DNA of 64,000 bases. Origin: Candidatus Woesearchaeota archaeon (GTDB lineage Archaea; Nanobdellota; Nanobdellia; Woesearchaeales; GW2011-AR15). Below the pieces are notes generated by a model, which worked only from the letters and a program-made list of their open reading frames with translations, did not search any database and was not told the origin of the DNA. Of the stretch, positions 24,635 to 45,421 are shown in pieces. The stretch is from contig JAFGJW010000001.1 of NCBI GenBank assembly GCA_016928835.1, positions 86,306-150,305 on the forward strand, given 5' to 3'. Each line of letters starts with the position of its first letter. The first letter of the stretch is position 1. Position numbers and translations under genes: made by a program.

Positions 24635-25390
24635 ATGCTTAATGCAATCTTTGATCCAATATTAGGCCCTTTGCTTAAATTGCCTTCTCTTGTAGCTATA
24701 CTTACTATATCGTTAGCAATGTCTGCGCTCATAACTGTCGTATACAAACTACTAACAGATCAAAACCTTATGAAGGATTTGAGAAATGAGATAAATGACC
24801 TGCAGAAAGAGCTGAAGACATTAAAGAACAATCCTAAAAAAGCAATGAAAGTGCAATCTCAGATGATGGAGACTAACAGCAAGTATATGATGCATTCGAT
24901 GAGGCCAACATTATTTACTTTTCTGCCAGTTATTCTTATATTTAGTTGGTTTAACACGCACCTTGGTTATTATCCCCTGCAGCCAGACAATCCATTTGAT
25001 GTAATTGTGATGTTTGACAAGGAAGCGACAGGGACTGCAGTCATGCAGGTGTCAGAGGGACTAACAGCCCTAGATGAAAAAAGCAAAGAGATAATAAGTG
25101 AGAAATTGGTTTGGCATTTGAAAGGAACAGAAGGAAGGCATAACCTTACAATTATCCATAACAACAAAGATTTTAGTAAAGATCTTTTAATTACTGAAAA
25201 AAGAGAATATATTAATCCTATTCAGAAAGTTAGGGGGAACTCAGTGAAAGAAATCATTGTTGGTAATGAGAGGATATACCCTTTTGGGGATCTTAGCTTC
25301 TTTGGCTGGAGACCGGGTTGGCTCGGAACATATATCATCTTTTCTCTGGTATTCAGCATGGCACTCAGAAAACTTCTTAAGATTTACTAG
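24635..25390 (+). CDS. DUF106/EMC3-Oxa1-like membrane insertase homolog (tentative)
   Basis: N-terminal TM, a coiled-coil with Met/Gln-rich segment (LQKELKTL...MKVQSQMMETNSKYM), further TMs and a C-terminal TM. An approx 80-aa soluble insertion is present. Confidence 0.4.
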   Translation: MLNAIFDPILGPLLKLPSLVAILTISLAMSALITVVYKLLTDQNLMKDLRNEINDLQKELKTLKNNPKKAMKVQSQMMETNSKYMMHSMRPTLFTFLPVILIFSWFNTHLGYYPLQPDNPFDVIVMFDKEATGTAVMQVSEGLTALDEKSKEIISEKLVWHLKGTEGRHNLTIIHNNKDFSKDLLITEKREYINPIQKVRGNSVKEIIVGNERIYPFGDLSFFGWRPGWLGTYIIFSLVFSMALRKLLKIY

Positions 25391-26561
25391 TTAAGAGATT
25401 AATAGGGCCTCTGTTTCCCTTATAAACCTGCTCACTAAATCTTATTAATTCTTTCCAGAAAATTTGCTGGTCAACTGATTTAATCCTTTTCTGTGCTCTC
25501 CTTCCCATTTCCTTCCCCTTTCTAAGATTTGTGAGCATATAGACAAGCCCATTTTCAAGACCTTTACTATCCCCCCTTTTACATATATATCCCTCCTTCA
25601 TATGCCTAACATATTCCTCCACGCCCTCGATGTCACTTGAAACAATTGCCAGACCTGTAGCCATTGCTTCCATAAGCACTGTTGGTATGCCTTCATTTAA
25701 TGAGCAGAATACAAAGATATCACTGCTTTTATAATATTCCCTTATACGGCTCCAGGGAACTTTGCCTACAGATATAATCCGCCCCTTGCACCATTTTGGT
25801 ATATCCCAAGAGAATTTTTCTCCCACATGGATTAATTTAACATTGATAAATTTCTTAAATATTACTGGAATAACTCTCTCTAAGTAGATGATTCCCTTTC
25901 TAACTTTTTCTTTGCCAGAAGAGACAAATAATATCTTGGTTCCCTTAATCTTATGCTTCCTGCCTTTATTTAGATACTCAAATTTGATGTCTTTGTTCGG
26001 AACAAAATGTGGAATCTTTTTTACCCCATAATATTTTATGCATTCTCTCCTATTTTCCATTGATGAATATATTATACCAGCGGCTTTTTTTGTTATCAGT
26101 GAATCTATAGGAAGAAACATTGTGAAGTGCAGCCTTCTAGCTATTCTTGATAAAAGGGAAGTTTCCTTTTTTGCAATATCCATATTCCTTAAAAAAGTGC
26201 GTACAGGCTGATCAGGCGCCCTTAAAATATATCTTCTATTAACAACTCCTACTGCCGCATCTCCGTTTGCAATTATTATGTCCCCTTCTCTTAGTTTATT
26301 CTTTTTGAAATAGTTGCTGACATGTAGGGCAAGAATAAGTATGTATGAGATATGTTTGAACAAAGAAAATCCTGCGACAGGGAACCTGTGCACCTCGGCA
26401 TAGTCAAGTTTCTCGTACTTTCTCAAGGTTTTCTTTGTTAATCCGCACAGTATAGTCACGTTATATTTCTTAGAAGCACTTTTGGCAAGTCCTTCAACAA
26501 ATCCATAGTAAGATCCTTTGTTCTCTTCAAAGCCCTGCGAGACAATGTATAACTTATTCAT
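25377..26561 (-). CDS. glycosyltransferase family 4 (GT-B)
   Basis: C-terminal EX7E region (EGIPTVLMEAMATGLAIVSS). Clear paralog of the GT4 at 38400-39599. Confidence 0.75.
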   Translation of the reverse strand: MNKLYIVSQGFEENKGSYYGFVEGLAKSASKKYNVTILCGLTKKTLRKYEKLDYAEVHRFPVAGFSLFKHISYILILALHVSNYFKKNKLREGDIIIANGDAAVGVVNRRYILRAPDQPVRTFLRNMDIAKKETSLLSRIARRLHFTMFLPIDSLITKKAAGIIYSSMENRRECIKYYGVKKIPHFVPNKDIKFEYLNKGRKHKIKGTKILFVSSGKEKVRKGIIYLERVIPVIFKKFINVKLIHVGEKFSWDIPKWCKGRIISVGKVPWSRIREYYKSSDIFVFCSLNEGIPTVLMEAMATGLAIVSSDIEGVEEYVRHMKEGYICKRGDSKGLENGLVYMLTNLRKGKEMGRRAQKRIKSVDQQIFWKELIRFSEQVYKGNRGPINLLTSKS

Positions 26562-26601
26562 TTAGGCTTATGAATATTATCCTATTTAAATTATTTTTTC
26601 C

Positions 26602-27045
26602 TTAGAGATAATATCTTAGTGAGAAAAATGGTCTTTCTTTGTCTTTCTCCTGAAATCCGATTCTTTTATAGAACTCCTTTGCTTCTGCCCTTCGTGTGTT
26701 GACATCAATAAAAGCTGCGCCAAAATCCTGTGCCACCTCAAGCAACTTTAGTGTAAGTGCTTTACCTACGCCCTGGCCTCTGCTTGCTTTATCAACGATA
26801 ACATCCTCTATCACACATACCTTGCCACCTAATTTGTCATAACAGACTATCGAAGCCATGCCAACTATTTTATCATCAATAAATGCAGTATAAACCTGAG
26901 ACTGGTCCAATTGGATGACTTCCTTGTATCTGTCAAATGCAATTGGGGCGTTTTTTGGATATAATTCGCTTAGCAAGACTCTGATTCTTTCATACACCCT
27001 CTTATCTGGTGGTGATTCTATTTTCCTAATGCTGAGCTTAGTCAT
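26602..27045 (-). CDS. GNAT-family N-acetyltransferase
   Basis: Acetyl-CoA binding motif RGQGVGKAL in a 147-aa protein. Confidence 0.7.
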   Translation of the reverse strand: MTKLSIRKIESPPDKRVYERIRVLLSELYPKNAPIAFDRYKEVIQLDQSQVYTAFIDDKIVGMASIVCYDKLGGKVCVIEDVIVDKASRGQGVGKALTLKLLEVAQDFGAAFIDVNTRRAEAKEFYKRIGFQEKDKERPFFSLRYYL

Positions 27046-27048
27046 TTT

Positions 27049-28191
27049 CTATTGTTTGCATTTTTCCAGTGCTTTGCAGATAGTTACAATAATCTTATCC
27101 ATCTGTTTCTTTGTCATTGAGGGAAACATTGGTAAAGTAACAACCCGCTTGGCTACATTTTCTGTTATTGGCAAGTCTCCCTCCCTGCATTTATATTCAT
27201 TCATATAATAAGGATGCAGATGAACTGGAGGCTCAAAATGAACACTGGCTTCAACATTATTGTTTCTTAGGAATATAACAAAGTTGTCTCTGTCCACAGA
27301 TTCACTTACTTGTATAACATACATCTGATAGACGTGATATGCATCCTCTGGCTCAGAAGGAACAGTAATCTGTTTATACCTAGATAAACCTTTGCTCAAG
27401 TATTTAGCATTCTCTCGTCTTTTTTCATTAAATCGGTCTAGTTTTTTAAGTTGTGTCAATCCAAGTACTGCAGATATCTCATTCATCCTAAAATTGTATC
27501 CTGGCATTACTGAAACTCTAATCCACGGCTTATCTAATTTTTCTCTCTCAAATGCTCCTTTTTTAACACCATGACCCCTTATGGTTCTTGCATTTTCTGC
27601 TATCTTCTCATCATTGGTGGTAATCATGCCTCCTTCTCCTGTTGTAATATTCTTGGTTGGGTAAAAACTAAAGCATCCAATATCAAAAGAACCTGTCTTT
27701 TTAGATTGGTATGTACTGCCAATTGCTTCAGCAGAATCTTCAATAACTGTTAAGTCATGATTTGTAGCTATCTCCATAATCTTGTCCATTTTGCAGCTTA
27801 GGCCAGCAAAATGAACTGGCATAATTCCAACAGTATTATGATTGATTTTTTTCATTATGTCTTCAGGACTGATATTCATTGTATCTTTTTCTATATCTGC
27901 AAATACAGGGACACAGCCTGCATTGACTATTGCATTGGCAGAAGCTGGGAATGTAAAACTTGGAAGGATAATCTCACCTTTTAGACTCTTTGCCATTATC
28001 GCTGCTTGAAGTGCTGATGCGCAGGAATTAAGTGAGACAGCATATTTTGCTCCGATATATCCTGCAAATTTTTCCTCAAATTCCTTTACCCTTGGACCAT
28101 GAGCAAGCCATCCTGACTCAAGAACTTCTCCAATTCTTTTTAGCTCTTCCTTTCCAAATCCGGGCTTGCAAAGCGGAACTCTTTCACTCAT
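27049..28191 (-). CDS. DegT/DnrJ/EryC1/StrS-family PLP-dependent sugar aminotransferase
   Basis: Approx 380 aa with the characteristic fold-type I layout. Neighbours are an epimerase and glycosyltransferases. Confidence 0.8.
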   Translation of the reverse strand: MSERVPLCKPGFGKEELKRIGEVLESGWLAHGPRVKEFEEKFAGYIGAKYAVSLNSCASALQAAIMAKSLKGEIILPSFTFPASANAIVNAGCVPVFADIEKDTMNISPEDIMKKINHNTVGIMPVHFAGLSCKMDKIMEIATNHDLTVIEDSAEAIGSTYQSKKTGSFDIGCFSFYPTKNITTGEGGMITTNDEKIAENARTIRGHGVKKGAFEREKLDKPWIRVSVMPGYNFRMNEISAVLGLTQLKKLDRFNEKRRENAKYLSKGLSRYKQITVPSEPEDAYHVYQMYVIQVSESVDRDNFVIFLRNNNVEASVHFEPPVHLHPYYMNEYKCREGDLPITENVAKRVVTLPMFPSMTKKQMDKIIVTICKALEKCKQ

Positions 28192-29146
28192 TTTTCTTAT
28201 AATAATTAAGATATTCTTTTACACCCTTTTCAAGAGGATATTCAGGTTTATAACCTATTCTTTCTTTGGCTTTACTTATATCCAATCCGCCTCTTCTTGG
28301 CAATGAGGGGTCTGCTTCACCAATCTGCATCTTGAGCTTGGGAAAATGTTGCTTTATTATCTTTGCTAACTCTCCTAATGTCCTGCCCTGACCGTATGTA
28401 ATATTAAAAATTTGATTTTCTGCATCAGGGTGCAAGGCAGCTAGCACAAATCCCTGGGCAGTATCCTCTGCATAAGTAAAATCAATCGCACTTGTCGGGT
28501 CATTCACAATAATCTCTTTGCCCTGCAGGGCATTTTCAATGAAGATCTGGACAACCCTTCTATTAATGTCAGTCGGTCCATATACTCCGCTTGGTCTGAT
28601 GATTACATAAGGTAATTTGAACTGTCTACAAAAAGAGCAAGTGAGATACTCTCCTGCTAATTTAACGCCTGCGTATACTCCCCTCGGATTTTTTGGATGG
28701 TTTTCATCTGCCGGGTCACACTCAAAGTCCCCATAGACTGTGCTTGAAGAGGTATAAATAAATCTTATATCAAGATTGAGATCATGTATTGCCTGTATTA
28801 TATTGCCAGTGGCTTTAACACCTTCCAATGCCTCTTCCACATAGATATTTGAAGCTTTTGCCAAAGGTAGACCTGCTAGATGAATAACAGCATCTGGCCT
28901 ATGCTCTTCTAATGCCTTTCGAACTTCACCATAATTGGCTGCATTTCCCCTTATCTCCACAACTTTCTCTGTAATGCCCTTAAACCGCTGTGTTAGAGCT
29001 TTTATTTTATTTTTATCTGGTTGAACTGTTGGCAGATACTGGAAAAATGAGTCAAAAATTATTGGAGTCACATTCTTCTGTACGAGTGCTCTGGCAATAT
29101 AGCTTCCAATAAAGCCAGCCCCCCCAAATAGAAGAATTTTTTTCAT
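28184..29146 (-). CDS. NAD-dependent nucleotide-sugar epimerase/dehydratase (extended SDR)
   Basis: Rossmann GGAGFIGS motif and catalytic YAGVK (YxxxK). Confidence 0.8.
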   Translation of the reverse strand: MKKILLFGGAGFIGSYIARALVQKNVTPIIFDSFFQYLPTVQPDKNKIKALTQRFKGITEKVVEIRGNAANYGEVRKALEEHRPDAVIHLAGLPLAKASNIYVEEALEGVKATGNIIQAIHDLNLDIRFIYTSSSTVYGDFECDPADENHPKNPRGVYAGVKLAGEYLTCSFCRQFKLPYVIIRPSGVYGPTDINRRVVQIFIENALQGKEIIVNDPTSAIDFTYAEDTAQGFVLAALHPDAENQIFNITYGQGRTLGELAKIIKQHFPKLKMQIGEADPSLPRRGGLDISKAKERIGYKPEYPLEKGVKEYLNYYKKNE

Positions 29147-29244
29147 GTGCTCTCTGAAAATAGTCTGGATGTTTTAAATTTTTTGGTTGAATTATATACT
29201 CAAATTATTTTTAGAGAGAAGATAGAAGATTTTATATATTTTTA

Positions 29245-29266
29245 AATACTCTTAATCAAGAGTATT
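29245..29266. promoter_or_regulatory. perfect 9-bp inverted repeat (AATACTCTT-AATC-AAGAGTATT) between a TATA-like tract and the radical-SAM start codon
   Basis: Read directly from the sequence. It lies 9 nt upstream of the ATG at 29275, in the divergent promoter region shared with the epimerase gene. Confidence 0.35.
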
Positions 29267-29274
29267 AATAAAGA

Positions 29275-30774
29275 ATGAAAATAACAATTATTACTCCAAA
29301 CATTGTGACTCAGAAAGGAGATTTTTTTGGCACAGGAATTCCATATATCCCTTTTACAGCAACTTATCTTGCCGCATACCTCATACAAAATGGGCATGAT
29401 GCCATAATTATTGACTCTTTTGGTGAGGCGCCTATGAATATAAGAAATTCTGGTATGTTTTTCTACCAGGGACTTTCCCCTAAGGAGATAAAAAACAAAA
29501 TTCCTTCTGATACAGATATAATTGTTATCTCCGCAGAAAGGGTGGTTGCCCATCAATCCATAATGCAACTTCTTAAGTTATTTAAGCGATTTGAGCTTCC
29601 AATAATTGTTGTTGAAAATTCACAGGCAGTAAGTGCGTATTCTGTGCAAGAATTAGCTAAGATACTTCTTGATTTAGGGGCGAAATTTATTATAGCCGGT
29701 GAACCAGAATATCGTACTAAAGAGCTTATTGATTGCATTAAAAGATCAAAAGATCCAACTCATATTGATGGTTTAATATTCAAAAAAGGAAACAAGATGG
29801 CGGTAAACAAAGTCAAATCATTTATTGAAGATCTTGATGAGCTGCCTTTTCCAGCATGGCATTTGTTGCCAATGAAAAATTACTGGTCTCTTGGATATGC
29901 TCATGCTCCCCTTTCCTCTGAAAAATATTTACCTATACTCACTTCTAGGGGATGTCCTTATAATTGCAGATTTTGTGTCATCCCTACAACAAACCAGAAT
30001 AGATGGAGACCTCGGAGCCCTACTAATGTAGTTACTGAGATACAATATTTTCATGACAAGATGCAGGTGAAAGAATTTCATCTTGAGGATCTAAATCCCA
30101 CTGTCGATCAGGAACGTATAGTAAATATGTGCTGCGAGATTATTAAGCGTAAGCTGGACGTCATATGGAAAATTGGATCAGGTACTAAGCTTGACGCCCA
30201 TTTTACAAAAGAGACTATATCTTTAATGGCTAGGAGTGGATGTAAATACATTTCCTTTTCTCCAGAGTCGGGATCAAAGGAGCTTCTGTCAAAGATAGGC
30301 AAACCCTTTAACTATAATAGGGCCCTTAGATTAGTTAGACATATGAATCGATTAGGTATTATAACACAAGCATGCTTTGTACTTGGGTTTCCTGGAGAAA
30401 AGGCAGAAGACTTGGCAATGACAAAAGGATATATCAAAAAACTTACTAAATCAGGCATTGATGAGATCGCTCTTTTTATCTTCAGCCCGGTTCCTGGTTC
30501 ATATTTTTATACTCATATTAAAAAACGATTTATTAAAATAAACTCACTTACCTTTTCTCCCATATGGAGGAAGGATTTTAAGCAACTAAATAGTTTCAGG
30601 ACCAAGACGTATTTTTCTTTTTTTATTTGGAAACTTATGCATCATCCGCTGAAAATTTTCAGACAAGTATACGCATTAATTACTAGGAACTTCGTGACAA
30701 AAATGGAGATGACTTTTTTTAGGTTGATTAAAATTAGAACAAGGTATCTGCTTTCAAGAATTCACAGAACTTGA
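29275..30774 (+). CDS. cobalamin-binding (class B) radical SAM enzyme
   Basis: N-terminal B12-binding-like Rossmann domain followed by a CxxxCxxC cluster (SRGCPYNCRFC) and a radical-SAM core. Confidence 0.8.
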   Translation: MKITIITPNIVTQKGDFFGTGIPYIPFTATYLAAYLIQNGHDAIIIDSFGEAPMNIRNSGMFFYQGLSPKEIKNKIPSDTDIIVISAERVVAHQSIMQLLKLFKRFELPIIVVENSQAVSAYSVQELAKILLDLGAKFIIAGEPEYRTKELIDCIKRSKDPTHIDGLIFKKGNKMAVNKVKSFIEDLDELPFPAWHLLPMKNYWSLGYAHAPLSSEKYLPILTSRGCPYNCRFCVIPTTNQNRWRPRSPTNVVTEIQYFHDKMQVKEFHLEDLNPTVDQERIVNMCCEIIKRKLDVIWKIGSGTKLDAHFTKETISLMARSGCKYISFSPESGSKELLSKIGKPFNYNRALRLVRHMNRLGIITQACFVLGFPGEKAEDLAMTKGYIKKLTKSGIDEIALFIFSPVPGSYFYTHIKKRFIKINSLTFSPIWRKDFKQLNSFRTKTYFSFFIWKLMHHPLKIFRQVYALITRNFVTKMEMTFFRLIKIRTRYLLSRIHRT

Positions 30775-30780
30775 GCAAGG

Positions 30781-32241: not shown

Positions 32242-32289
32242 CTTCCAGCACGTTTCTTAATAATCTGTGATATGTCTTCGGGTATAAAA

Positions 32290-38378: not shown

Positions 38379-38399
38379 GAACTAATTGATTACCCCATA

Positions 38400-39599
38400 T
38401 TATTTAAGCAAGTTGATTGATTCAGTATAACTCTTCATTTTGATTTCTTCACTAAACCTCAACAATTTTTTAGCAAAATTACTATAATCCAGCGGCTTTA
38501 CCTTTTTTCTGGCAGTCTCTGCAATATTCTTTCTTGCTTGTGGATTGTCTAATAAATATTGGATTCCAGTTATAAGCCCCTTAACATCTCCCCTTCTATA
38601 AATATAACCTTCTTTAAGATGAGTAATCACTTCACGCATTCCATCCATGTCACTTGTAACTACTGGGGTTCCTGCTGCCATTGCCTCAAATATAATATTT
38701 GGAATCATTTCATTAAGCGAGCATACGACTAATACATCCGAGGAGGCATAATAGTCAGCCATCTTGTCCCAAGGAATTCTGCCGACTGATGTTATACGTT
38801 TAGAACACCAGCCAGGTACATCCCACTTAAACCTATCCCCAACATGCAAAAGCCGGACATTTGGATTTCTCTTCATTATCTCTGGAAGCGCCTTTTCAAG
38901 GTGGATTATACCTTTCCTGATTTTTTCTGTGCCTGCAGAAACAAAAAGAAGTTTTATTCCTGGAACATCTATTTTCTTACCAGCACTGAATTCTCTATAT
39001 CTTAAACCTGAATGTGGTATAAAATAAGGTTTGTTCTTGCCCCCATAAGACCTAACCACGTGGTTTCTGCTTTCCAAAGATGATGATATATAACCAATTG
39101 CATTTTTTGCGCATCTAAGTTCCATTAGATGCTGCAAATAAAAATGAATAAATCTGGCCAATCTTGTTAGCATTGATACATGATGCTTAGCAATTTCCAT
39201 GTTTTTTAAAAAAACGAGTGCAGGCTGCCCTATTCTTAAGACATATTTATATCCTTTAAGAAAAAAAGCAGCCCTGCTGTTAACTATAATTAGGTCTCTT
39301 TCACCAGGAGGATTCTCCCTAAAATATTTTCTAATTTTCCTGCTCAGAAAAATATATTCCTTATTCATGTTCATTATAGGCAACTTGAACAAGGGGATTG
39401 GAAATCTCTTAAGACTGGCATACGGGAATTTTTGTCTGAGAGGCAGTTTCTTATCAATTTGTCCACATAGAATTACTACTTTGTAACCTTGGCTATTTGC
39501 ATACCTTGACAATTGCTCAAACATTCCGGCATATGAGCCGCTATTTGGTGTGAAATGACGGCAAATAAGGTATAGTCTACTATTCATATTATTATTCAT
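38400..39599 (-). CDS. glycosyltransferase family 4 (GT-B)
   Basis: Paralog of 25377-26561 with long co-linear identity (LLFVSAGTEKIRKGIIHLEK ... EMIPNIIFEAMAAGTPVVTSD). Confidence 0.75.
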   Translation of the reverse strand: MNNNMNSRLYLICRHFTPNSGSYAGMFEQLSRYANSQGYKVVILCGQIDKKLPLRQKFPYASLKRFPIPLFKLPIMNMNKEYIFLSRKIRKYFRENPPGERDLIIVNSRAAFFLKGYKYVLRIGQPALVFLKNMEIAKHHVSMLTRLARFIHFYLQHLMELRCAKNAIGYISSSLESRNHVVRSYGGKNKPYFIPHSGLRYREFSAGKKIDVPGIKLLFVSAGTEKIRKGIIHLEKALPEIMKRNPNVRLLHVGDRFKWDVPGWCSKRITSVGRIPWDKMADYYASSDVLVVCSLNEMIPNIIFEAMAAGTPVVTSDMDGMREVITHLKEGYIYRRGDVKGLITGIQYLLDNPQARKNIAETARKKVKPLDYSNFAKKLLRFSEEIKMKSYTESINLLK

Positions 39600-39605
39600 A
39601 TTATC

Positions 39606-40604
39606 CTACTCTAGGGGCTTTCCCATAACCATGGATGCACCGCACTCCTTACATAATTTAAGAGACCTGGTTTTTACTAATTCCCTGGTCTTTTTGTATT
39701 TAGGGCTGTTCCATATCTCCAGGAAAGATTTCTCTAATATATTACCAAAACTATACTCTGCATTAAGGTCATAACAGCAAAGACATACTTCCCCTTCCCA
39801 TGTTATCACTGTTTTTCTGGTAAAACCGCATTTCCCTGTAGCTTTAATTAGCTTCCATTTCTTGCCTTTTTTTGAGTATCTGCGGTACTTATTTGTAGGA
39901 AGGAATTCATCAGCTAGTCTGTCAAAGTCTTTACCCTTATAGAACCAGCTCGGAATTGCTACTGTTTTGATAAATATCTTATCTGGGCCAACATTCTCCA
40001 TGAACTTTTCTAGTTTTTTCACCTCATGCTGGTTATGTTTCATACAGATGAATTGTATTTCAATTTTTGGCTTTTTAAGCCCAAGTTCTTTTTTTCTTTT
40101 ACATAATTTTTTAATATTACCTATGACTTTTGTATAATCAGAGCCGACCCTGTATTTTTTATATGTTTTTTCCGAAAGTCCGTCGAGCGAAATTATCAAT
40201 CTTGATAGGCCACTCTTCAAAAGGCCATCAATATCATCCATTTTTGTTGCATTTGTCGATATAGTTACTTCAATATTTTTCTTAGCAGTGACCTCGATCA
40301 TCTTGATTATATCTGGATGTAAGAAAGATTCTCCTGCAAAAAACAATGTTACTTTTGGGAACATCCCTGAAATCTTATCTATTATCCTTTTGTAATCCTT
40401 GAGTTGCATAAATCCGCTTTTTCTTTTCATAAACTTATGTGAGCAAGGACAAAGAACGCAGCTAAGATTACAGGCATTGGTCGGCTCAATCATCACATCA
40501 CTGGGATAGCCGAAAATTTTGTTTCTGATGTATTTCAGATTGTTTAAGAAAAGACCCAAATCTTTTTCCATTAGCGGATCAAAATAGAGATTCTTTAAAG
40601 TCAT
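39606..40604 (-). CDS. radical SAM protein with C-terminal SPASM/twitch-like Cys-rich domain
   Basis: EPTNACNLSCVLCPC (CxxxCxxC). The C-terminus has 7 Cys (CGFT...CLCCYD...CKECG). Confidence 0.7.
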   Translation of the reverse strand: MTLKNLYFDPLMEKDLGLFLNNLKYIRNKIFGYPSDVMIEPTNACNLSCVLCPCSHKFMKRKSGFMQLKDYKRIIDKISGMFPKVTLFFAGESFLHPDIIKMIEVTAKKNIEVTISTNATKMDDIDGLLKSGLSRLIISLDGLSEKTYKKYRVGSDYTKVIGNIKKLCKRKKELGLKKPKIEIQFICMKHNQHEVKKLEKFMENVGPDKIFIKTVAIPSWFYKGKDFDRLADEFLPTNKYRRYSKKGKKWKLIKATGKCGFTRKTVITWEGEVCLCCYDLNAEYSFGNILEKSFLEIWNSPKYKKTRELVKTRSLKLCKECGASMVMGKPLE

Positions 40605-40740
40605 TTTATTTATATTGCCTAATTAAATTTAATTGCTCTTAAATGGAAAAGCCAAAAGCAAGGAAAACTTATATAGTTTTCGGAACAAATTATTAAAGCA
40701 ATCATTAAGGGCAAGACTATAGAAATTGGTCTTATGGAAA

Positions 40741-42279
40741 TCATCTCGTCTCTTCAGGTTCAAACTTGAAAAAAGGCAATCTTAGTCTATTATTGCTGGC
40801 AATTCCGATAATCCTATTAATCTTCGTAAATGAAACTATCCGTAATACCAATAGTGAGACAAGATAAATGCAACCTGACACGAAAAGAGTTATTAGAAGT
40901 TTAAGATAGATGTCCACATTTATTATTCTTTTTAGAAAAATTATAACAACAACGAAAAATAATGAAGACATCAAAATTTTTAACATTCTCTTTATTGGAA
41001 GCCTGACTTCGAGATATTTGTTCTTTAGGTATACTGTGTACATCGCGCCTATGATTACACACATTAAATCAGATAACCCAGCACCTAGAAGCCCCATACT
41101 GGGTATTAAAACTATGTTAAGTATGATATTGGCAATAACAGTAATGTATGTAATGTTTCTTGCTTCTTTTGGCAGTCCTTTGCTTAAAAAAACCCTTTTC
41201 ATAATCCCATTGAAGCTGTAAAATAGGAAATACACAGCGAAGATTCTTAGCAGAAAAGCCGCCTTAACAAAAGTCTCTGCATAGAGTATTCTTAAAATCT
41301 CTTCTGAAAATAAAAACAGTGTAAGGGAGGCAGGTATCGCAATAAGATATGAGTATGTAATAAGCTCGGAAAAATAGTAATTTAGACCTTTGATGTCCTT
41401 TTTTTCCCAGAGCTCGGACATCATAGGGAAGAACACCTGAATCATTGCTTTTAGGAAGAATATCGTTGCTTTTGCCAAAGACATGGCCATAACATAATAT
41501 CCTACACTATCAAGCCCAACAAAATACGTAAGGAAGAAGATGGTCTGTTGCCCAAAAATCTGAAAGGCAAATGAGGCAGTCATTGTTGGAATCGAATAGC
41601 TTATCATCCTTTTCTTAATTTTGTTAATGGGATAGCATGGTGTAGAAAAGAACCCTGGAAAAATTTTTTTTAGGAATATGATTAAAAAAATAATTGAAGT
41701 GATTATTGCGCCTATTACATAAACTAATCCAAAATAATAAATGGAGTAATTATTCAGGATTACAACTAGGAAGAATAGAAATGCAAGCAGTTGGAAACAG
41801 AATTCAACTCCCTGGTATAAAACCATGTTCTGGTAAGCATGGAATGTTGAATACAGCGCTTCAAGAAAGCCTTCAATGACAAAGTATACAGCGAGGGCTA
41901 TGAGCAGTATCTGCGCCCTGGGATCCTTAAAATATAATTTAGCCAGCAAACCTGAAGAGAAGACAAAAAAGACAGAGATTAGGATACCACATATCACTTG
42001 CATCCGCACTGTAAAAAGTATAGATGACTTTATCTTATTTTTTGATTTTTTAATAATGAAGCGCGGAATAAAATAAACAAGTGATTCAGACAAGCCAAGA
42101 TCACGGAGAAAAGAGAAAAATGTTACAAAGCTTAGAACAGAAAAAAACAAGCCAATATCAGCGACATTAATAGTTTTGGCAAATAATAATTTTTGCGCAT
42201 ATCCCAGCATAGAGGAAAATATAACAAAAAGCATAATTATTATTGTCCCCTGCACAAGTTTTTTCCCGTAATTGGCCAC
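40741..42279 (-). CDS. Wzx-like oligosaccharide flippase (MOP/polysaccharide biosynthesis protein family)
   Basis: 512 aa with approx 12-14 TMs and an N-terminus typical of the MOP flippase family. Confidence 0.7.
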   Translation of the reverse strand: MANYGKKLVQGTIIIMLFVIFSSMLGYAQKLLFAKTINVADIGLFFSVLSFVTFFSFLRDLGLSESLVYFIPRFIIKKSKNKIKSSILFTVRMQVICGILISVFFVFSSGLLAKLYFKDPRAQILLIALAVYFVIEGFLEALYSTFHAYQNMVLYQGVEFCFQLLAFLFFLVVILNNYSIYYFGLVYVIGAIITSIIFLIIFLKKIFPGFFSTPCYPINKIKKRMISYSIPTMTASFAFQIFGQQTIFFLTYFVGLDSVGYYVMAMSLAKATIFFLKAMIQVFFPMMSELWEKKDIKGLNYYFSELITYSYLIAIPASLTLFLFSEEILRILYAETFVKAAFLLRIFAVYFLFYSFNGIMKRVFLSKGLPKEARNITYITVIANIILNIVLIPSMGLLGAGLSDLMCVIIGAMYTVYLKNKYLEVRLPIKRMLKILMSSLFFVVVIIFLKRIINVDIYLKLLITLFVSGCIYLVSLLVLRIVSFTKINRIIGIASNNRLRLPFFKFEPEETR

Positions 42280-42318
42280 TATTGGTTAAATTATGTCAGC
42301 TTATATAAAATTTATTGA

Positions 42319-43152
42319 TTATTGCTTATGACCAAAATATAAATTATTTACACGAGTCTCTTGTTTGATTTTAAATCCATGTTTTTTTAGAATCTTAACT
42401 AAGTCAGCCTCTTTAGTATGTCTTGCTGATTTTTCCACAATGATATTCTCTGTTTTTCTTAAGATTCTATCAGCGCCTTCCAGGATTTCTACTTCAGGAC
42501 CCTCAACATCTATCTTCAGCAAATAAATACTATCCTCTTTATCGCAGCAGATATCCAATGTTGTTGTCTCCACAAGTTCATATTTTTTGTAGTGCTTTCT
42601 ACTATACATTCCATCTTCTTTGAGAATAAGAGAATTGTTCCCGCTTCCTCTAAGGTATAATTTCATTTTTCCCTTTTTAGTATATAATGCTTCTCTGTGG
42701 GCAAGAACATTATCGCAGCCGTTTTCTTTGATATTCTTTTTTAAGAGAGAAAAATTTTTGCTGGAGGGCTCGAATGCATAGATCTTTTTTGCTTTTTTCC
42801 TTTTAGCCAATATCAGACTCATCAGTCCGATATTAGCTCCTGCGTCTATTATAACCTTGTTCTCTGGAATATTCTTCATTAAGTATTCATCAAGGACAAT
42901 TACATCGATTATTATGCCATATAGTTCAATGAAGTGGTGTATGACTATCCCGTCCTTCAACACAATCTTCATCTTGATTGAGGCCAGGTTTGACACATGG
43001 CGCAGGAAAAATTTCATTCTGTTTCTTCCGATTATTTTCGAGCCTGCTTCATAAAAAAAATAATATCCATAGGTAAGCAATTTATGCAAGTATTGGCCTT
43101 TCTTTGCTTCTGTTGCATAAAATTTATTTAGCAACTTGAATGTCTCAAACAT
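42319..43152 (-). CDS. FkbM-family methyltransferase
   Basis: DAGANIGLMS...AFEP...LLKIDVEGPE motifs. Confidence 0.7.
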   Translation of the reverse strand: MFETFKLLNKFYATEAKKGQYLHKLLTYGYYFFYEAGSKIIGRNRMKFFLRHVSNLASIKMKIVLKDGIVIHHFIELYGIIIDVIVLDEYLMKNIPENKVIIDAGANIGLMSLILAKRKKAKKIYAFEPSSKNFSLLKKNIKENGCDNVLAHREALYTKKGKMKLYLRGSGNNSLILKEDGMYSRKHYKKYELVETTTLDICCDKEDSIYLLKIDVEGPEVEILEGADRILRKTENIIVEKSARHTKEADLVKILKKHGFKIKQETRVNNLYFGHKQ

Positions 43153-43225
43153 AGACTTGCCATTGTTTTGTATTATATTAATTTTTCTAGTTTTATATCA
43201 TAATAAAAGAGAATATGGCCAGCAA

Positions 43226-44488
43226 TTACCAGCAAATCCCTTCATAATTTTTTGGTATCTTAGAATTAAATACGTTTTTTCCGTCAATGACTAGCTTATC
43301 TCCGTAATCCAGGTCTTTGAATTCAGGCCATTCAGTCAATATAAGTACAATCTCACTGTTATTAACAACTTCCTGGCCACTGCCTAAATAGTTCAGATGC
43401 GGGAAAATTCTCTTAACTTTGTCCATGGCTTTTGGGTCATATATATAGAGTTCTGCTTCTTCCATCAGTAATTCCTTAATAGTATTTAGTGCAGGACTCT
43501 CCCTAATATCATCTGTGCCTGCTTTAAAAGTAAGGCCCAGCACCCCAATCTTCCTATGGCGCAGTCCTTTTTTTTCTAAAATCTCCAACAATTTCAATGG
43601 CTGGTCTCTGTTGACATCCAGTACAGCTCTTAATAACCTGGGGTTATAACCTAGCTCAGTAGCCTTGTAGATTATTGCGTTAACGTCTTTCGGGAAGCAT
43701 GACCCTCCAAAACCAATACCTGACCTTAGGAAATAGGGGCATATTCTATGATCCAGACCAATGCCTTCTGCGACAACATTAGTGTCAATATTGAATCTCT
43801 TGCATATATTGCCTATCTCATTAATAAATGAGATCTTGGTTGCGAGGAAGGCGTTTGAGGCATATTTAATCATTTCTGCCTCTTTAAAACTGGTGGATAG
43901 TATAGGACACTTGAAATTTGAATATAGTTTTCTAAGTGTTTGGAGAGATCTTTTATCACTCGAGCCAATAACAATTCTATCAGGATTAAAAAAATCCTCT
44001 ATTGCCTCTCCCTCCCTTAGAAACTCTGGGTTCATCAAAACACCAAAGTCTTTTGGGAACTTTTTCTTACTCTCTTTCTCAAGAATAGGGATAACGTTTT
44101 CTTCGCAGGTTCCCGCAACTACTGTAGATTTGATTACCACAGTATGGTACTTCTTCAGCTTCAAGTACATACCAATTTCTTTGCTTACATGTTCCAGCTG
44201 ATGCAATGACATGCTGCCTTGCTTCTTTGATGGAGTCCCAACACAGATAAAAGATATATCTGAATCAAGTATTGCCTTTTTTAGATTGCTGGTGATAGAC
44301 AAATTCCTCGACACAACCCTATCCAGAATCTTTTTCAAGCCTTTTTCGTAGATAGGCGGTTTTTTGTTAATGATACTTTCAATTCTCTCTTTATTTATAT
44401 CTACTCCAATAACCTCGTATCCAAGATCAGCCAAACACACTGCCTGAGTTAGACCAACATATCCTAAGCCAATAACTGAAATCTTCAT
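43226..44488 (-). CDS. UDP-glucose/GDP-mannose 6-dehydrogenase family nucleotide-sugar dehydrogenase
   Basis: N-terminal GLGYVG Rossmann motif and catalytic-Cys block GFGGSCFPKD. Confidence 0.85.
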   Translation of the reverse strand: MKISVIGLGYVGLTQAVCLADLGYEVIGVDINKERIESIINKKPPIYEKGLKKILDRVVSRNLSITSNLKKAILDSDISFICVGTPSKKQGSMSLHQLEHVSKEIGMYLKLKKYHTVVIKSTVVAGTCEENVIPILEKESKKKFPKDFGVLMNPEFLREGEAIEDFFNPDRIVIGSSDKRSLQTLRKLYSNFKCPILSTSFKEAEMIKYASNAFLATKISFINEIGNICKRFNIDTNVVAEGIGLDHRICPYFLRSGIGFGGSCFPKDVNAIIYKATELGYNPRLLRAVLDVNRDQPLKLLEILEKKGLRHRKIGVLGLTFKAGTDDIRESPALNTIKELLMEEAELYIYDPKAMDKVKRIFPHLNYLGSGQEVVNNSEIVLILTEWPEFKDLDYGDKLVIDGKNVFNSKIPKNYEGICW

Positions 44489-44650
44489 CAGCTGTCACCT
44501 CATATAGACTAAAGCTTGAAATAGAGGAAATATATATATCTTACTCTTATCATACTTTATGCGATATGTTTATAAATATGATTAGGTTTTTTCATTTTTG
44601 GGGGGCTAAAAATTAAGAAGAAAATATCTATCACAATAAGCGAGAAAACC

Positions 44651-45421
44651 TTGAGTGATATAGATAGTATAATAGATAATATTTATGTGAGAAACAGAAG
44701 CCAGGCAATAGAACTTCTTGTCAATAATGCTTTGGGCGAGAATAGAGTTGCAGTAATTTTGTTTGGAGGGGAAGAAACATCGCTTAAGATCTCAGAAAAC
44801 CAGTACAGAATAACTGGAAAAATAGACTCCTCAACAGTATTTGAGCTAGCTATAAAAAAATTGAAGGAGGACGGTTTCAAGACAATATATGCTATATCAA
44901 GACATAATATAATTACAGAGCTCTTCAAGCTCGTGCAAAATGGCTCAAAATACGGGGTAAATATCCAATATATTGAGGAGAAAGAGTCACTTGGGACAGC
45001 TGATTCCCTTCGGTTGCTGCGTGGGAAGGTAAAAACTAACTTCTTGGTTGTGTATGGTGACACTATTTTCACAGAGGTTAATATGGATGAACTCTGGAAT
45101 GAGCATATCAAGCGAAAAGGTATGACTACTTTGTTATTGACAACCACCCCCACTCCGAGCAAAAAGGGTGTTGTGAAGATTGAGGGCACCAAGATACTGG
45201 ACTTTGTTCAGAAACCCAAAGATAGTGATGTTTATCTTGGTTTTTCTTCTATTTTTGTTACACAGCCAGAACTTCTTGAGTACCAGGGAAACAGTCTTGA
45301 GGAACAAGTGTTTCCCATACTTGCGCAAAAAGGACTTTTGAATGGGTATCTAAGCACCAGCAAGGTTGTTAAAATCCATTCACTGCCTGACCTGAAGAAA
45401 GCTGAGCATCTAGTCAAATAG
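44651..45421 (+). CDS. sugar-phosphate nucleotidyltransferase-fold protein with degenerate G-loop and N-terminal approx 30-aa extension
   Basis: NTP-transferase blocks are present (GTADSL, VVYGDTIF, VKIEG...FVQKPK). The canonical GGxGTRL loop reads GGEETSL, with no Lys/Arg. Start is TTG at 44651, with an alternative GTG 39 nt downstream. Confidence 0.5.
   Translation: MSDIDSIIDNIYVRNRSQAIELLVNNALGENRVAVILFGGEETSLKISENQYRITGKIDSSTVFELAIKKLKEDGFKTIYAISRHNIITELFKLVQNGSKYGVNIQYIEEKESLGTADSLRLLRGKVKTNFLVVYGDTIFTEVNMDELWNEHIKRKGMTTLLLTTTPTPSKKGVVKIEGTKILDFVQKPKDSDVYLGFSSIFVTQPELLEYQGNSLEEQVFPILAQKGLLNGYLSTSKVVKIHSLPDLKKAEHLVK

Follow-up and report, generated by a model that had tools for sequence, protein, structure and literature searches.

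AprD4 and ArsL have the appearance of class B radical SAM enzymes, yet neither binds cobalamin (PMC12931638); sequence cannot tell whether an enzyme of this kind binds cobalamin. Sugars with C-methyl or otherwise radically rearranged carbons had been called undescribed for archaeal surface glycans in a preliminary description of the locus studied here, and a literature search found no paper describing class B radical SAM enzymes for such glycans. The radical SAM subfamilies of this locus include no characterised member, and the proteins fall far below every NCBIfam equivalog cut-off. The window analysed is a stretch of 64,000 nucleotides, and the locus occupies positions 25377-45421 (Table 1). 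We consider it fairly probable, for the explanation as a whole, that this locus of a Woesearchaeota (DPANN) archaeon makes a decorated lipid-linked cell-surface glycan, with the four radical SAM enzymes acting as sugar-tailoring enzymes of the pathway.

The locus contains 17 closely spaced genes, and Pfam and NCBIfam searches found in 17 of 17 ORFs the domains listed in the preliminary description. Four of the products are Radical_SAM proteins, and all four have a CxxxCxxC motif. Gaps between genes do not exceed 163 bp and GC content is uniform, so the region reads as a single locus. The NodU-like carbamoyltransferase is probably an outlying member beyond it; it is 48% identical to a carbamoyltransferase directly after a B12-binding radical SAM gene in L004, a glycan locus of Omnitrophota, and shares 36% identity with its counterpart in L085. 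The listed domains are thus present, but the "full kit" for a surface glycan is not complete, since AglB, an initiating phosphoglycosyltransferase and Wzy are all absent from the window.

Table 1. Genes of the glycan locus and the main match for each (positions in the window).
Gene product	Position	Strand	Main match or remark
GT4a glycosyltransferase	25377..26561	-	Pfam Glycos_transf_1, 87 bits
GNAT N-acetyltransferase	26602..27045	-	Pfam Acetyltransf_1, 62 bits
DegT/PseC-like PLP sugar aminotransferase	27049..28191	-	Pfam DegT_DnrJ_EryC1, 407 bits
SDR, NDP-sugar 4,6-dehydratase/epimerase-like	28184..29146	-	Pfam Epimerase, 148 bits
rSAM-A, radical SAM enzyme of predicted class B architecture	29275..30774	+	Pfam Radical_SAM only
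rSAM-B, B12-binding-domain radical SAM enzyme	30781..32241	-	Pfam B12-binding 73 bits, Radical_SAM 99 bits
rSAM-C, B12-binding-domain radical SAM enzyme	32290..33801	-	Pfam B12-binding 70 bits, Radical_SAM 90 bits
Short GT2, polyprenyl-phosphate sugar synthase type (AglJ/ArnC/PpgS-like)	33891..34577	+	Pfam Glycos_transf_2, 118 bits
Class I SAM methyltransferase	34574..35518	+	Pfam Methyltransf_23, 104 bits
UDP-galactopyranose-mutase-like flavoenzyme	35518..36897	+	PDB match to UGM; NCBIfam PRK07208-type, 305 bits
Orphan polytopic membrane protein, soluble C-terminal domain, 492 aa	36900..38378	+	Occupies the PMT_2 slot of the cassette
GT4b glycosyltransferase	38400..39599	-	Pfam Glycos_transf_1, 89 bits
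Radical SAM enzyme with SPASM/twitch domain	39606..40604	-	Pfam Radical_SAM 74 bits, SPASM 61 bits
Wzx/MOP-family lipid-linked oligosaccharide flippase	40741..42279	-	Pfam Polysacc_synt 72 bits, MurJ 57 bits
FkbM-family methyltransferase	42319..43152	-	Pfam Methyltransf_21, 73 bits
UDP-glucose/NDP-sugar 6-dehydrogenase (AglM-like)	43226..44488	-	All three UDPG_MGDP_dh Pfam domains
NTP_transferase-like sugar-1-phosphate nucleotidyltransferase	44651..45421	+	Pfam NTP_transferase, 69 bits
NodU-like O-carbamoyltransferase	48230..49990	-	Pfam Carbam_trans_N 281 bits, Carbam_trans_C 238 bits

Three of the radical SAM enzymes had been described as B12-binding class B proteins. A B12-binding domain is supported for rSAM-B and rSAM-C, the only ones to pass the Pfam B12-binding cut-off of 32 bits. 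In rSAM-A no Pfam B12-binding domain was found, and where the rSAM-B/C family has an invariant GGxH motif, the rSAM-A family has an invariant E114-N115; the cobalamin use of rSAM-A is therefore unproven. Its cluster motif is C227-x3-C231-x2-C234. In the AF2 model of rSAM-A (pLDDT 92), a Rossmann domain of five strands precedes a TIM-like core, and Foldseek matched the model to MgmA, TsrM, AprD4, CysS, OxsB and TokK at a TM-score of about 0.6. This confident model and the NCBIfam coverage suggest that rSAM-A is class-B-like. The model of rSAM-B (pLDDT 91) is also confident and predicts class B architecture, with Foldseek matches to TsrM and AprD4 (TM 0.71/0.76), MgmA and OxsB. rSAM-B and rSAM-C are paralogues with 32% identity; homologues of rSAM-C begin near its residue 18, so that its translation probably begins at the ATG near 33750. 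The SPASM enzyme had a W-cofactor maturase as its top NCBIfam match (138 bits; cut-off 380) and PDB matches to BtrN, Tes/Mas and BlsE (E between 1e-8 and 1e-7). Its relatives, at no more than 31% identity, lie beside B12-binding radical SAM and GT2 genes in L077, L011 and L032.

The link of these enzymes to glycans is supported by their relatives. In other phyla of archaea and bacteria, the closest radical SAM relatives lie inside glycan loci, and a GT2 gene followed by a B12-binding radical SAM gene, at times then by PMT_2, is repeated across many phyla. In related DPANN genomes, where a synteny check had been proposed, glycan-linked radical SAM loci were found. Orthologues of rSAM-B (60% identical) directly adjoin the cassette GT-C gene in Woesearchaeota L002 and Patescibacteria L088, and rSAM-C has orthologues in syntenic loci of Altiarchaeota (L089, 55% identical) and of another archaeon (L009, 53%). 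Two fusion proteins, each with a B12-binding radical SAM half, point the same way. In P0097, residues 512-830 are 47% identical to the SDR of the window over the full SDR length, and the radical SAM half is 36% identical to rSAM-C; in P0023, the methyltransferase half is 35% identical to the Methyltransf_23 protein and the radical SAM half 40% identical to rSAM-B. Glycan-embedded relatives and these two Rosetta-stone fusions indicate that the association is not due to chance. Four radical SAM genes among 12 consecutive genes would occur with a probability of about 2.5e-5 per window in a rough binomial estimate that assumes a 1.5% share of such genes; conserved synteny in other phyla is the stronger argument. 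A grouping with lipid or peptide enzymes, away from glycan genes, had been named as the contrary outcome. Clustering placed rSAM-B and rSAM-C with glycan-context relatives and not with a separate 50-member cluster that has no glycan genes in its neighbourhood and probably represents the Gmm/Grs-type lipid enzymes (PMC11214058). Together these data support the radical SAM genes as a functional part of glycan biosynthesis, as the preliminary description had proposed.

rSAM-A is the signature gene of a conserved cassette, in which it is grouped with a polyprenyl-phosphate-type GT2, a class I methyltransferase and a mutase-like FAD enzyme; a GT-C protein is often present too. rSAM-A has 1806 homologues, and the best 120 of these 1806 are 45-55% identical. 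GT2, Methyltransf_23 and FAD enzyme genes occurred in all five genomic contexts of orthologues that were inspected, namely in Woesearchaeota, Patescibacteria, Altiarchaeota and Aenigmatarchaeota and on an unclassified contig of 372 kb, and PMT_2 in four of them. A metagenome scan covered 26 loci flanked by 4 kb or more on either side; GT2 and Methyltransf_23 lay within 5 kb in 25 of them, and the FAD enzyme was also present in 19. This archaeon is not alone in the arrangement, which occurs widely among DPANN archaea, Patescibacteria, Omnitrophota, Nitrospirota and further groups.

The GT2 gene opens the cassette operon. Its top NCBIfam matches are lipid-phosphate sugar synthases without exception (AglJ 99 bits, ArnC 73, Dol-P hexose transferase 60, PpgS 51; all under cut-off), and it shares 52-53% identity with the cassette GT2 of L002 and L088. 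The methyltransferase has a CxxC...CxxC element at its N-terminus, is 41-53% identical to cassette orthologues and matched TcaB9, a C-methyltransferase acting on sugars, co-linearly but only weakly (E=1e-3). The protein described as an "FAD oxidoreductase" is a flavoenzyme, but rather one resembling UDP-galactopyranose mutase: in the PDB it matches T. cruzi UGM best (4dsg, E=5.7e-22), aligned full-length over residues 3-420, and UGM-like positions at least 95% conserved across 33 cassette orthologues include the His loop, K152/W154/G155, R317, Y384-P385 and G412-R413-x-G415...Y419. The membrane protein has roughly eight hydrophobic segments, no match in Pfam or NCBIfam and only 21 relatives among 1.8 billion representatives. 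Residues 298-491 matched the cassette PMT_2 proteins in hhalign (95.9% probability, E=5e-9), and the C-terminal domain of AglB (3vu0) was matched weakly (E=0.004). Of the earlier label "GT-C/Wzy-like", the GT-C part is retained: remote homology in the C-terminal half suggests a divergent GT-C-like protein.

By domain and context evidence, the other genes supply precursors and assembly. The NTP_transferase-like protein (its GxGTRL motif is degenerate and reads GGEETSL), the 6-dehydrogenase and the SDR, DegT and GNAT proteins form a precursor set, which together would produce an NDP-acetamido-deoxyhexose. With 460 bits the 6-dehydrogenase passes the NCBIfam cut-off of 190 for the NDP-sugDHase subfamily, and it scores 465 bits with AglM, under the cut-off of 670. 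LegB (118 bits) and dTDP-glucose 4,6-dehydratase (117 bits) for the SDR, and PseC (321 bits) and ArnB (292 bits) for DegT, are all under cut-off. DegT is 52% identical to the L006 DegT that stands after the radical SAM-SDR fusion P0097, and the position of the GNAT gene after DegT suggests that its substrate is probably an amino sugar. GT4a closes the SDR-DegT-GNAT-GT4 operon. GT4a and GT4b are 43% identical to each other, and 44% and 47% identical, respectively, to the GT4 of L089. They assemble the oligosaccharide, and the Wzx protein flips it. The FkbM methyltransferase passes its NCBIfam cut-off (fkbM_fam, 102 bits against 38).

In the proposed side branch, the UGM-like mutase would form an unusual NDP-sugar, probably a furanose, which the GT2 would transfer to dolichyl or polyprenyl phosphate. 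The sugar may be altered, perhaps while it is lipid-linked, by the methyltransferase and rSAM-A and probably also by rSAM-B, and the GT-C-like protein would pass it, on the outer side of the membrane, to an acceptor that may be a protein, a lipid or a polymer. Some rSAM-A orthologues have an extra hydrophobic helix at the C-terminus, which fits a membrane-associated substrate. At the level of nucleotide sugars, rSAM-C may be paired with the SDR/DegT branch. The stages assigned to the radical SAM enzymes (NDP-sugar, Dol-P-sugar or finished glycan) are inferred from gene order and fusions only. An S-layer N-glycan as the product is not established because there is no AglB at the locus.

For rSAM-B and rSAM-C, methylcobalamin-dependent C-methylation at an unactivated sugar carbon is the most likely reaction. 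No DPANN archaeon is known to synthesise cobalamin, a point against this reading. The matches of these enzymes do not settle on C-methylation, which had been named as one possible chemistry. AprD4, a sugar diol-dehydratase that works without cobalamin, is the top or equal structural match, and the radical step may be a deoxygenation. HpnJ, which putatively contracts a sugar ring, is the top NCBIfam match for rSAM-B and rSAM-C (for rSAM-B, HpnJ 252 bits and BchE 239 bits, both under cut-off), and ring contraction may likewise be the step. Both alternatives apply above all to rSAM-A; C-methylation remains our preferred reading for rSAM-B and rSAM-C.

The sugar loci around the closest relatives of these enzymes, found in numerous uncultured archaea and bacteria, point to an uncharacterised and widespread radical modification of cell-surface sugars. 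rSAM-B has its highest TM-score to AprD4, which binds no cobalamin. ArnC-ArnD-ArnT provides an analogue for sugar modification at the lipid-linked stage, and HpnI-HpnK-HpnJ provides a second.

The window belongs to a metagenome-assembled genome of Candidatus Woesearchaeota (DPANN). Its rSAM-B is 100% identical to an NCBI protein listed under that name, and a Logan contig carries the same stretch. The glycan locus comprises 17 ORFs separated by gaps of at most 163 bp, and its GC content is uniform. Pfam scans found a ribosomal-protein operon, SecY, an unknown gene and a YidC/EMC3-like gene upstream, and ZPR1, two unknown or MBL-fold genes, a NodU-like carbamoyltransferase, unrelated genes and the mevalonate pathway downstream; the remainder of the window consists of housekeeping genes. 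The carbamoyltransferase was the sole further candidate member detected downstream by these scans. Its homologues adjoin B12-binding radical SAM (B12-rSAM) genes in the glycan loci of two relatives, L004 (48% identity) and L085 (36% identity). The locus probably reaches this gene, which as an outlying member suggests a carbamoylated sugar. Every domain named in the preliminary description was recovered with Pfam and NCBIfam, including those of the four radical SAM (rSAM) proteins. The other genes encode two GT4s, one GT2, DegT, an SDR, a GNAT, an NDP-sugar 6-dehydrogenase, an NTP_transferase-like protein, Wzx, FkbM, Methyltransf_23, a flavoprotein and a polytopic membrane protein that has no Pfam match. 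The description of the locus as a full kit for a surface glycan went too far, because Pfam scans found no AglB, initiating phosphoglycosyltransferase or Wzy in the window. The two GT4 genes are paralogues with 43% identity. The NTP_transferase-like protein has a degenerate nucleotide-binding motif (GGEETSL versus GxGTRL), and no ATG precedes the domain in its ORF, so that translation would start at TTG or another alternative codon. The rSAM-C gene was also called from TTG, and its homologues start near its Met18 (about position 33750).

Positions in the window of the genes discussed in the text
Feature	Position	Strand	Remarks
527-aa ORF	7385-8968	+	Primase small- and large-subunit Pfam signatures, weak scores
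Glycan locus	25377-45421		17 ORFs
rSAM-A	29275-30774	+	Class-B-like rSAM
rSAM-B	30781-32241	-	Class-B-like rSAM
rSAM-C	32290-33801	-	Class-B-like rSAM
GT2	33891-34577	+	Putative polyprenyl-phosphate type
MT23	34574-35518	+	Methyltransf_23
UGM-like flavoenzyme	35518-36897	+	Putative mutase
Orphan membrane protein	36900-38378	+	In the GT-C slot of the cassette
SPASM rSAM	39606-40604	-	Fourth rSAM
NTP_transferase-like protein	44651-45421	+	Degenerate motif
NodU-like O-carbamoyltransferase	48230-49990	-	Carbam_trans_N and Carbam_trans_C; 2.8 kb past the locus end
Isoprenoid gene run	54064-63522	+	HMG-CoA synthase-like, thiolase, HMG-CoA reductase, GHMP (mevalonate) kinase, polyprenyl synthetase, FMN-dependent IDI2-like
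653-aa protein	57933-59894	+	Inside the mevalonate run; no Pfam match

The isoprenoid gene run downstream of the locus may supply the dolichol carrier and is notable because DPANN archaea are often said to lack lipid synthesis. A candidate surface glycoprotein is the 653-aa protein encoded inside this run, which has an N-terminal signal, a lipobox-like LFVASC and a Cys-rich segment and contains four N-x-S/T sequons. Elsewhere in the window, the 527-aa ORF appears, from its two domain signatures, to encode a fused PriS-PriL primase.

All four rSAM proteins pass the Pfam Radical_SAM model (PF04055; 71, 99, 90 and 74 bits for rSAM-A, rSAM-B, rSAM-C and the SPASM rSAM, cut-off 29.5) and have an intact CxxxCxxC motif (CPYNCRFC, CPSFCIYC, CPFNCTYC and CNLSCVLC). 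Three of them had been described as cobalamin-type enzymes. This stands for rSAM-B and rSAM-C, which carry the Pfam B12-binding domain (PF02310; 73 and 70 bits, cut-off 32) and are predicted from it to use cobalamin, but not for rSAM-A, which has no PF02310 match in Pfam. A precomputed PF02310 match was present in only 4 of the 120 listed rSAM-A homologues. The GGxH motif is invariant across the rSAM-B/C family, whereas the rSAM-A family has an invariant E-N at this place. rSAM-A can be regarded as class-B-like because the B12-rSAM family models of NCBIfam cover it from residue 26 and because its AF2 model (pLDDT 92) places a five-strand Rossmann domain ahead of the rSAM core. Foldseek matched this model to MgmA, TsrM, AprD4, CysS, OxsB and TokK, and the rSAM-A and rSAM-B (pLDDT 91) models gave TM-scores of 0.6-0.7 with MgmA/QCMT, TsrM, OxsB, TokK and CysS. 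The predicted structures of both proteins have the class B fold (class I type), a 5-strand/5-helix Rossmann domain packed on a TIM-like rSAM core. The fold is not decisive for cobalamin, because Foldseek does not separate true B12 enzymes from the cobalamin-free AprD4, which matches both models equally well or better. Class-B-like proteins without cobalamin are documented, and cobalamin binding is decided by no sequence motif (PMC12931638).

The three class-B-like rSAMs (scores in the order rSAM-B, rSAM-C, rSAM-A) did not reach the equivalog cut-offs of HpnJ (TIGR03471; 252, 218 and 129 bits, cut-off 577.6), BchE (TIGR02026; 239, 209 and 123 bits, cut-off 481) or AprD4 (NF033070; 102, 102 and 46 bits, cut-off 500). 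HpnJ was the best NCBIfam match of both rSAM-B (252 bits) and rSAM-C (218 bits). The fourth rSAM contains a SPASM domain (PF13186; 61 bits, cut-off 21.5) at residues 262-321, and six Cys residues were counted in its C-terminal region. It matched no equivalog, the best score being that of a W-cofactor maturase (138 bits, cut-off 380).

rSAM-A belongs to a large family with a conserved set of partner genes. A search found 1806 homologues at E < 1e-15, and the best 120 of these share 45-55% identity with rSAM-A over 97-100% of its length. They come from Woesearchaeota, Aenigmatarchaeota, Altiarchaeota, Patescibacteria and unbinned metagenomes. In all five orthologue contexts inspected with precomputed Pfam annotation, rSAM-A was accompanied by a short GT2, a Methyltransf_23 protein and an amine-oxidase/UGM-like flavoprotein, and in four of the five a PMT_2 GT-C came next. 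A metagenome scan with the rSAM-A family alignment gave 80 further loci, of which 26 with at least 4 kb on both sides were used for counting. GT2 and MT23 lay within 5 kb of rSAM-A in 25 of these 26 loci, and the flavoprotein was also present in 19; the commonest gene order was rSAM-A, GT2, MT23, FAD. In the window, GT2, MT23 and the FAD enzyme form an overlapping operon (33891-36897) and rSAM-A is 3 kb off. An additional hydrophobic helix at the C-terminus is present in some rSAM-A orthologues and fits a membrane-bound substrate. Synteny searches with single sequences in phmmer were too insensitive, flagging 2 of about 10 glycan genes in L004, and iterated profiles were used instead; even with these, the neighbour counts of GT-C, GT4 and SDR are underestimates.

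rSAM-B and rSAM-C are paralogues with 32% identity, and their family comprises 968 proteins at E < 1e-20 and at least 579 loci in GTDB species genomes. This family is tied to glycans by GT-C adjacency, by a polysaccharide locus of Omnitrophota and by two gene fusions. Orthologues with 60% identity to rSAM-B directly adjoin the cassette GT-C in another Woesearchaeote and in a Patescibacterium. The Omnitrophota orthologue (43%; L004) stands in the order GT2, rSAM, MT23, in a polysaccharide locus that also holds GT4s, SDRs, Bac_transf, Wzy and a carbamoyltransferase. In the fusion protein P0097, a B12-rSAM with 36% identity to rSAM-C is joined to an SDR with 47% identity to the window SDR, and the next gene encodes a DegT that is 52% identical to the DegT of the window. 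In P0023 from Thiovibrio frasassiensis, a B12-rSAM (40% to rSAM-B) is joined to a methyltransferase (35% to MT23). Two archaeal loci are near-syntenic with the window, one in Altiarchaeota (L089; rSAM-C 55%, rSAM-A 50%, MT23 53%, FAD 43%, GT4 44-47%, plus Wzx) and one in another archaeon (L009; rSAM-C 53%, rSAM-B 41%, UGDH 51%, DegT 54%). The contexts inspected place the closest rSAM relatives within glycan loci in archaeal and bacterial groups. Split TPP-dependent transketolase/E1-like gene pairs adjoin DegT, SDR and GT2 genes in two relatives (L002:1654-2774 and L091:4991-6837) and may serve the formation of two-carbon branched-chain sugars; such a pair is absent from the window.

A distance-based clustering covered 143 B12-rSAM sequences from 80 genome loci, with the genes within 3.5 kb of each sequence scored as its neighbours. 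Glycan neighbours were found for 5 of the 7 members of the rSAM-B cluster and 5 of the 8 members of the rSAM-C cluster, and for all members of the adjacent clusters (7/7, 5/5 and 3/3). A separate cluster of 50 members from Methanobacteriaceae, Archaeoglobi, Bathyarchaeia and Thermoproteota (31-40% identity to rSAM-B) had no glycan neighbour in any member within the same distance. An SPASM rSAM, frequently directly upstream, was the only neighbour in ten of them. This cluster (loci L015-L023, L029, L031, L039-L043, L052, L063 and L078) is probably the Gms/Gmm (GMGT synthase/methylase) or Grs-like lipid group of PMC11214058. In Bathyarchaeia and unclassified bacteria (L055, L058, L067, L071, L075 and L084), 5-7 B12-rSAM paralogues are arrayed over about 20 kb, often together with an SPASM rSAM and Methyltransf_23 and with few glycan genes or none; these arrays may serve lipid or natural-product chemistry.

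The enzyme labelled an FAD oxidoreductase in the preliminary description aligned instead over its full length to eukaryote-type UDP-galactopyranose mutases (UGM), with E=5.7e-22 to the Trypanosoma cruzi enzyme (4dsg, residues 3-420) and E values of 1e-13 to 1e-14 to the Aspergillus fumigatus enzyme. In 33 UGM-like orthologues, D51-G53-H55, R317, Y384-P385, G412-R413-G415 and Y419 are at least 95% conserved, and from the UGM literature we take these positions (His loop, FxR, YP, GRxG...Y) to belong to the active site. Because its scores nevertheless lie below the cut-offs of Pfam GLF (23.5 versus 26.3 bits) and TIGR00031 (36 versus 304 bits), we classify this flavoenzyme by sequence as a distant member or sister family of UGM with putative mutase activity. 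The GT2 scored 118 bits in Pfam, and its top NCBIfam matches were AglJ, ArnC, a Dol-P hexose transferase, PgfS and PpgS, all below their cut-offs. Pairing with GT-C and DUF2304 genes in relatives supports its putative assignment to the polyprenyl-phosphate type. In L089 (13841-14194), L006 (2994-3323), L113 and L123, the short GT2 comes with a small membrane protein of the DUF2304 family, reminiscent of the one that partners PpgS, the polyprenyl-phosphate GalNAc synthase of mycobacteria; the window cassette has no such gene. We also considered MT23 as a TcaB9/TylC3-type sugar C-methyltransferase, but the match (E=1e-3), with no Pfam match to Methyltransf_13 or Methyltransf_14, is a weak lead only.

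The GT-C slot of the window cassette is filled by an orphan membrane protein with about eight hydrophobic segments and a C-terminal soluble domain. A word-indexed homologue search with this protein found only itself, and exhaustive HMMER found 21 relatives among 1.8 billion representatives. The protein and 17 aligned relatives gave no Pfam match (0/18), and BLASTP gave none to the PMT_2 protein of L002. In hhalign it matched the cassette PMT_2 proteins with 95.9% probability (E=5e-9) over residues 298-491 only, and its N-terminal catalytic half did not align to PMT_2. There was also a weak match to the C-terminal domain of AglB (E=0.004). This profile alignment indicates that the C-terminal half is homologous to the cassette PMT_2 GT-C proteins.

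We propose tentatively that the cassette of four to five genes (UGM-like mutase, polyprenyl-phosphate GT2, methyltransferase, rSAM-A and GT-C) and its accompanying B12-rSAMs form an unrecognised pathway widespread in DPANN, CPR, Omnitrophota and other groups, in which a lipid-phosphate-linked, probably furanose, sugar is radically rebuilt before GT-C transfer to the cell surface, by C-methylation, deoxygenation or carbasugar ring contraction; in this full form the proposal is possible but doubtful. For the locus itself, a probable course can be proposed. The mutase-like enzyme would supply an unusual, probably furanose, NDP-sugar, and the GT2 would load the sugar derived from it onto dolichyl phosphate. 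This order is suggested by the best characterised relatives of the GT2, which are lipid-phosphate sugar synthases, and by its pairing with GT-C. MT23 and rSAM-A, and probably also rSAM-B, would tailor the lipid-linked sugar, and the GT-C-like protein would pass it to an acceptor outside the membrane. In a second branch, SDR, DegT and GNAT would yield an NDP-acetamido-deoxyhexose; we place rSAM-C in this branch because of the P0097 fusion. The GT4s, Wzx, FkbM, the dehydrogenase and probably the carbamoyltransferase would complete a decorated oligosaccharide.

The gene neighbourhood could mislead if the rSAMs were membrane-lipid enzymes of the Grs/Gmm/Gms/Tes type, which act on isoprenoid chains or head groups, and had glycan neighbours by accident. 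GrsA/B and Gmm are B12-binding rSAMs, Gms is an SPASM/twitch rSAM, and such genes cluster together in archaea, some DPANN included (PMC11214058, PMC13459092). The 50 glycan-free relatives of rSAM-B, often with an SPASM neighbour, favour this reading, as do a weak match of the window SPASM rSAM to Tes/Mas (7tol, E=5e-8) and the mevalonate-pathway and polyprenyl synthase genes 9-17 kb downstream. However, rSAM-B and rSAM-C did not group with the glycan-free cluster and fall among clusters with mostly glycan neighbours, in a set of 143 sequences from which reference Grs, Gmm and Cds sequences are absent. rSAM-A is tied to a GT2 and a methyltransferase in all but one of the loci counted, and the fusions involve an SDR and a methyltransferase homologous to those of the window. 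Moreover, Patescibacteria and Omnitrophota, groups that do not produce archaeal tetraethers, also have orthologues, the mevalonate genes are absent from the relatives' loci, and none of the SPASM genes in the glycan-free cluster closely matches the window SPASM rSAM. Clustering and context together make a role in lipid synthesis very unlikely. B12-rSAM and SPASM enzymes are also typical RiPP maturases, and in some clusters B12-rSAM C-methyltransferases and SPASM maturases accompany glycosyltransferases, so the locus might make a RiPP that is later glycosylated. rSAM-B weakly matches ApyD (160 bits) and rSAM_ocin_1 (125 bits) in NCBIfam, and both GT4s weakly match the rSAM-associated glycosyltransferase family TIGR04157 (41-48 bits, cut-off 400), but all these scores are far below the cut-offs. 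The short intergenic gaps leave almost no space for a gene encoding a precursor peptide. Enzymes of sugar metabolism (UGM-like, GT2, SDR, DegT) make up the conserved partners, and Pfam found no peptidases, transporters or RRE/PqqD domains in the window locus or in the relatives' rSAM-A loci. With neither space for a precursor gene nor peptide-pathway partners, we rejected this explanation as scarcely credible.

If the rSAMs do tailor a glycan, the kind of radical chemistry has to be considered. C-methylation via methylcobalamin is the commonest class B reaction and can be predicted for rSAM-B and rSAM-C from their B12 domain; the majority of characterised class B enzymes are methylases (PMC13459092, PMC12931638). 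Tailoring without methylation is a less likely alternative. One or more of the class-B-like rSAMs, rSAM-A above all, would then be cobalamin-free 1,2-diol dehydratases of the AprD4 type that form deoxysugars, or enzymes of the HpnJ/Cds/OxsB type that form carbocyclic or ring-contracted sugars, and the SPASM rSAM, which weakly matches BtrN and BlsE, would act as a dehydrogenase like BtrN or a decarboxylase like BlsE. Among PDB sequences, rSAM-B matches AprD4 best (E=3e-21), and the TM-score of AprD4 is the highest for rSAM-B (0.71/0.76) and tied for rSAM-A (0.64). HpnJ heads the NCBIfam matches of rSAM-B and rSAM-C, and a GT2 beside a B12-rSAM mirrors HpnI and HpnJ, which act on lipid-linked glucosamine (PMC13459092). 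rSAM-A has neither the GGxH motif nor the Pfam B12 domain, and two conventional methyltransferases are already present in the locus. On the other hand, the AprD4 model covers only the rSAM core (residues 179-401) and does not match the N-terminal domain, the HpnJ and BchE cut-offs are missed more than twofold, and the B12-binding domains of rSAM-B and rSAM-C are clear.

Class B rSAMs are among the largest pools of enzymes without assigned function, and their known sugar chemistry is limited to antibiotic and hopanoid pathways. Conserved gene order and fusions link three uncharacterised rSAM subfamilies, which number hundreds to thousands of proteins among uncultivated archaea and bacteria, to cell-surface glycan assembly. 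NDP-4-amino-deoxyhexose intermediates and polyprenyl-phosphate sugars are gained as substrate hypotheses, and the minimal cassette defined here is open to expression and assay. If the tentative pathway is correct, it would yield surface sugars of a class that no archaeal or bacterial glycan has so far shown. C-methylated or ring-contracted sugars would be new glycan building blocks and could matter for the attachment of DPANN and CPR symbionts to their hosts, and the reduced genomes of these organisms would need scavenged cobalamin for building their surface. A full-text literature search, with most subscription journals outside its reach, found no description of such rSAM enzymes in archaeal or bacterial surface-glycan loci. 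Together with the lack of a close characterised relative and the missed equivalog cut-offs, this makes the sense of novelty in the preliminary description reasonable. The association of rSAM-rich loci with glycans is, however, a widespread trait of the family and not a peculiarity of this locus.

Three-component lipid-phosphate-sugar systems include ArnC/ArnD/ArnT, GtrA/B/C, CsbB/YfhO and PpgS(Rv3631)/Rv3632/Rv3779. In these systems a short GT2 makes a polyprenyl-phosphate monosaccharide and a GT-C transfers the sugar outside the membrane, and in the Arn system a modifying enzyme acts on the lipid-linked sugar between the two steps. The window GT2 resembles ArnC, AglJ and PpgS, and the DUF2304 genes beside GT2 in L089 and L006 extend this likeness. 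Unlike these systems, the window has an orphan GT-C-like protein whose N-terminal half lacks alignment to PMT_2, and no characterised lipid-phosphate-sugar/GT-C system is known to contain an rSAM enzyme or a UGM-like mutase. The archaeal Agl pathways (Haloferax AglJ, AglM and AglB) share with the window an AglJ-like GT2, an AglM-like UDP-glucose dehydrogenase, a flippase and GT4s. The AglJ and AglM equivalog cut-offs are missed here and AglB is lacking from the window, and no Agl pathway with rSAM enzymes was found described in the literature searched.

AprD4 (PDB 6fd2), the radical SAM 1,2-diol dehydratase of apramycin synthesis, has an amino sugar as its substrate. Its fold is class-B-like, and it is the top match of rSAM-B in both PDB sequence and TM-score. 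It binds no cobalamin (PMC12931638), whereas rSAM-B and rSAM-C keep a B12 domain recognisable by Pfam, and the AprD4 family model aligns to the rSAM core only. The HpnI-HpnK-HpnJ pathway of the hopanoid cyclitol ether and calditol synthesis resemble the scheme proposed here, with a GT2 attaching a hexose to a lipid and an rSAM then rearranging the sugar on that lipid. HpnJ is a putative ring-contracting enzyme on a lipid-linked amino sugar, and in archaea the Sulfolobus calditol synthase Cds sets a precedent for an rSAM working on a lipid-bound sugar (PMC13459092). The scores of rSAM-B and rSAM-C are far from the HpnJ equivalog cut-off, and there are no hopanoid or tetraether genes in the window locus or in the relatives' loci. 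The partners in the window are instead a mutase-like flavoenzyme, a methyltransferase and a GT-C-like protein, which suggests that the sugar is passed on and does not end as a lipid head group.

Sugar tailoring by class B enzymes is known from GenK and GenD1 in gentamicin C-methylation and from MoeK5 in moenomycin sugar C-methylation (see also PMC12931638 and PMC11214058). In these enzymes, too, an N-terminal Rossmann (B12) domain precedes a CxxxCxxC rSAM core, and they act on sugars at unactivated carbons, as would the rSAMs of the window by analogy; the pathway of MoeK5 is, in addition, built on a lipid-linked saccharide. They differ in lacking close sequence kinship with the window proteins, whose best PDB and NCBIfam matches have at most about 20% identity or lie far below the cut-offs. 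They also belong to antibiotic clusters, whereas the present genes are part of a primary glycan locus for the cell surface, in an archaeon as well as in CPR bacteria. Sugar tailoring by rSAMs is itself known, and what would be new here is its place inside primary surface-glycan pathways.
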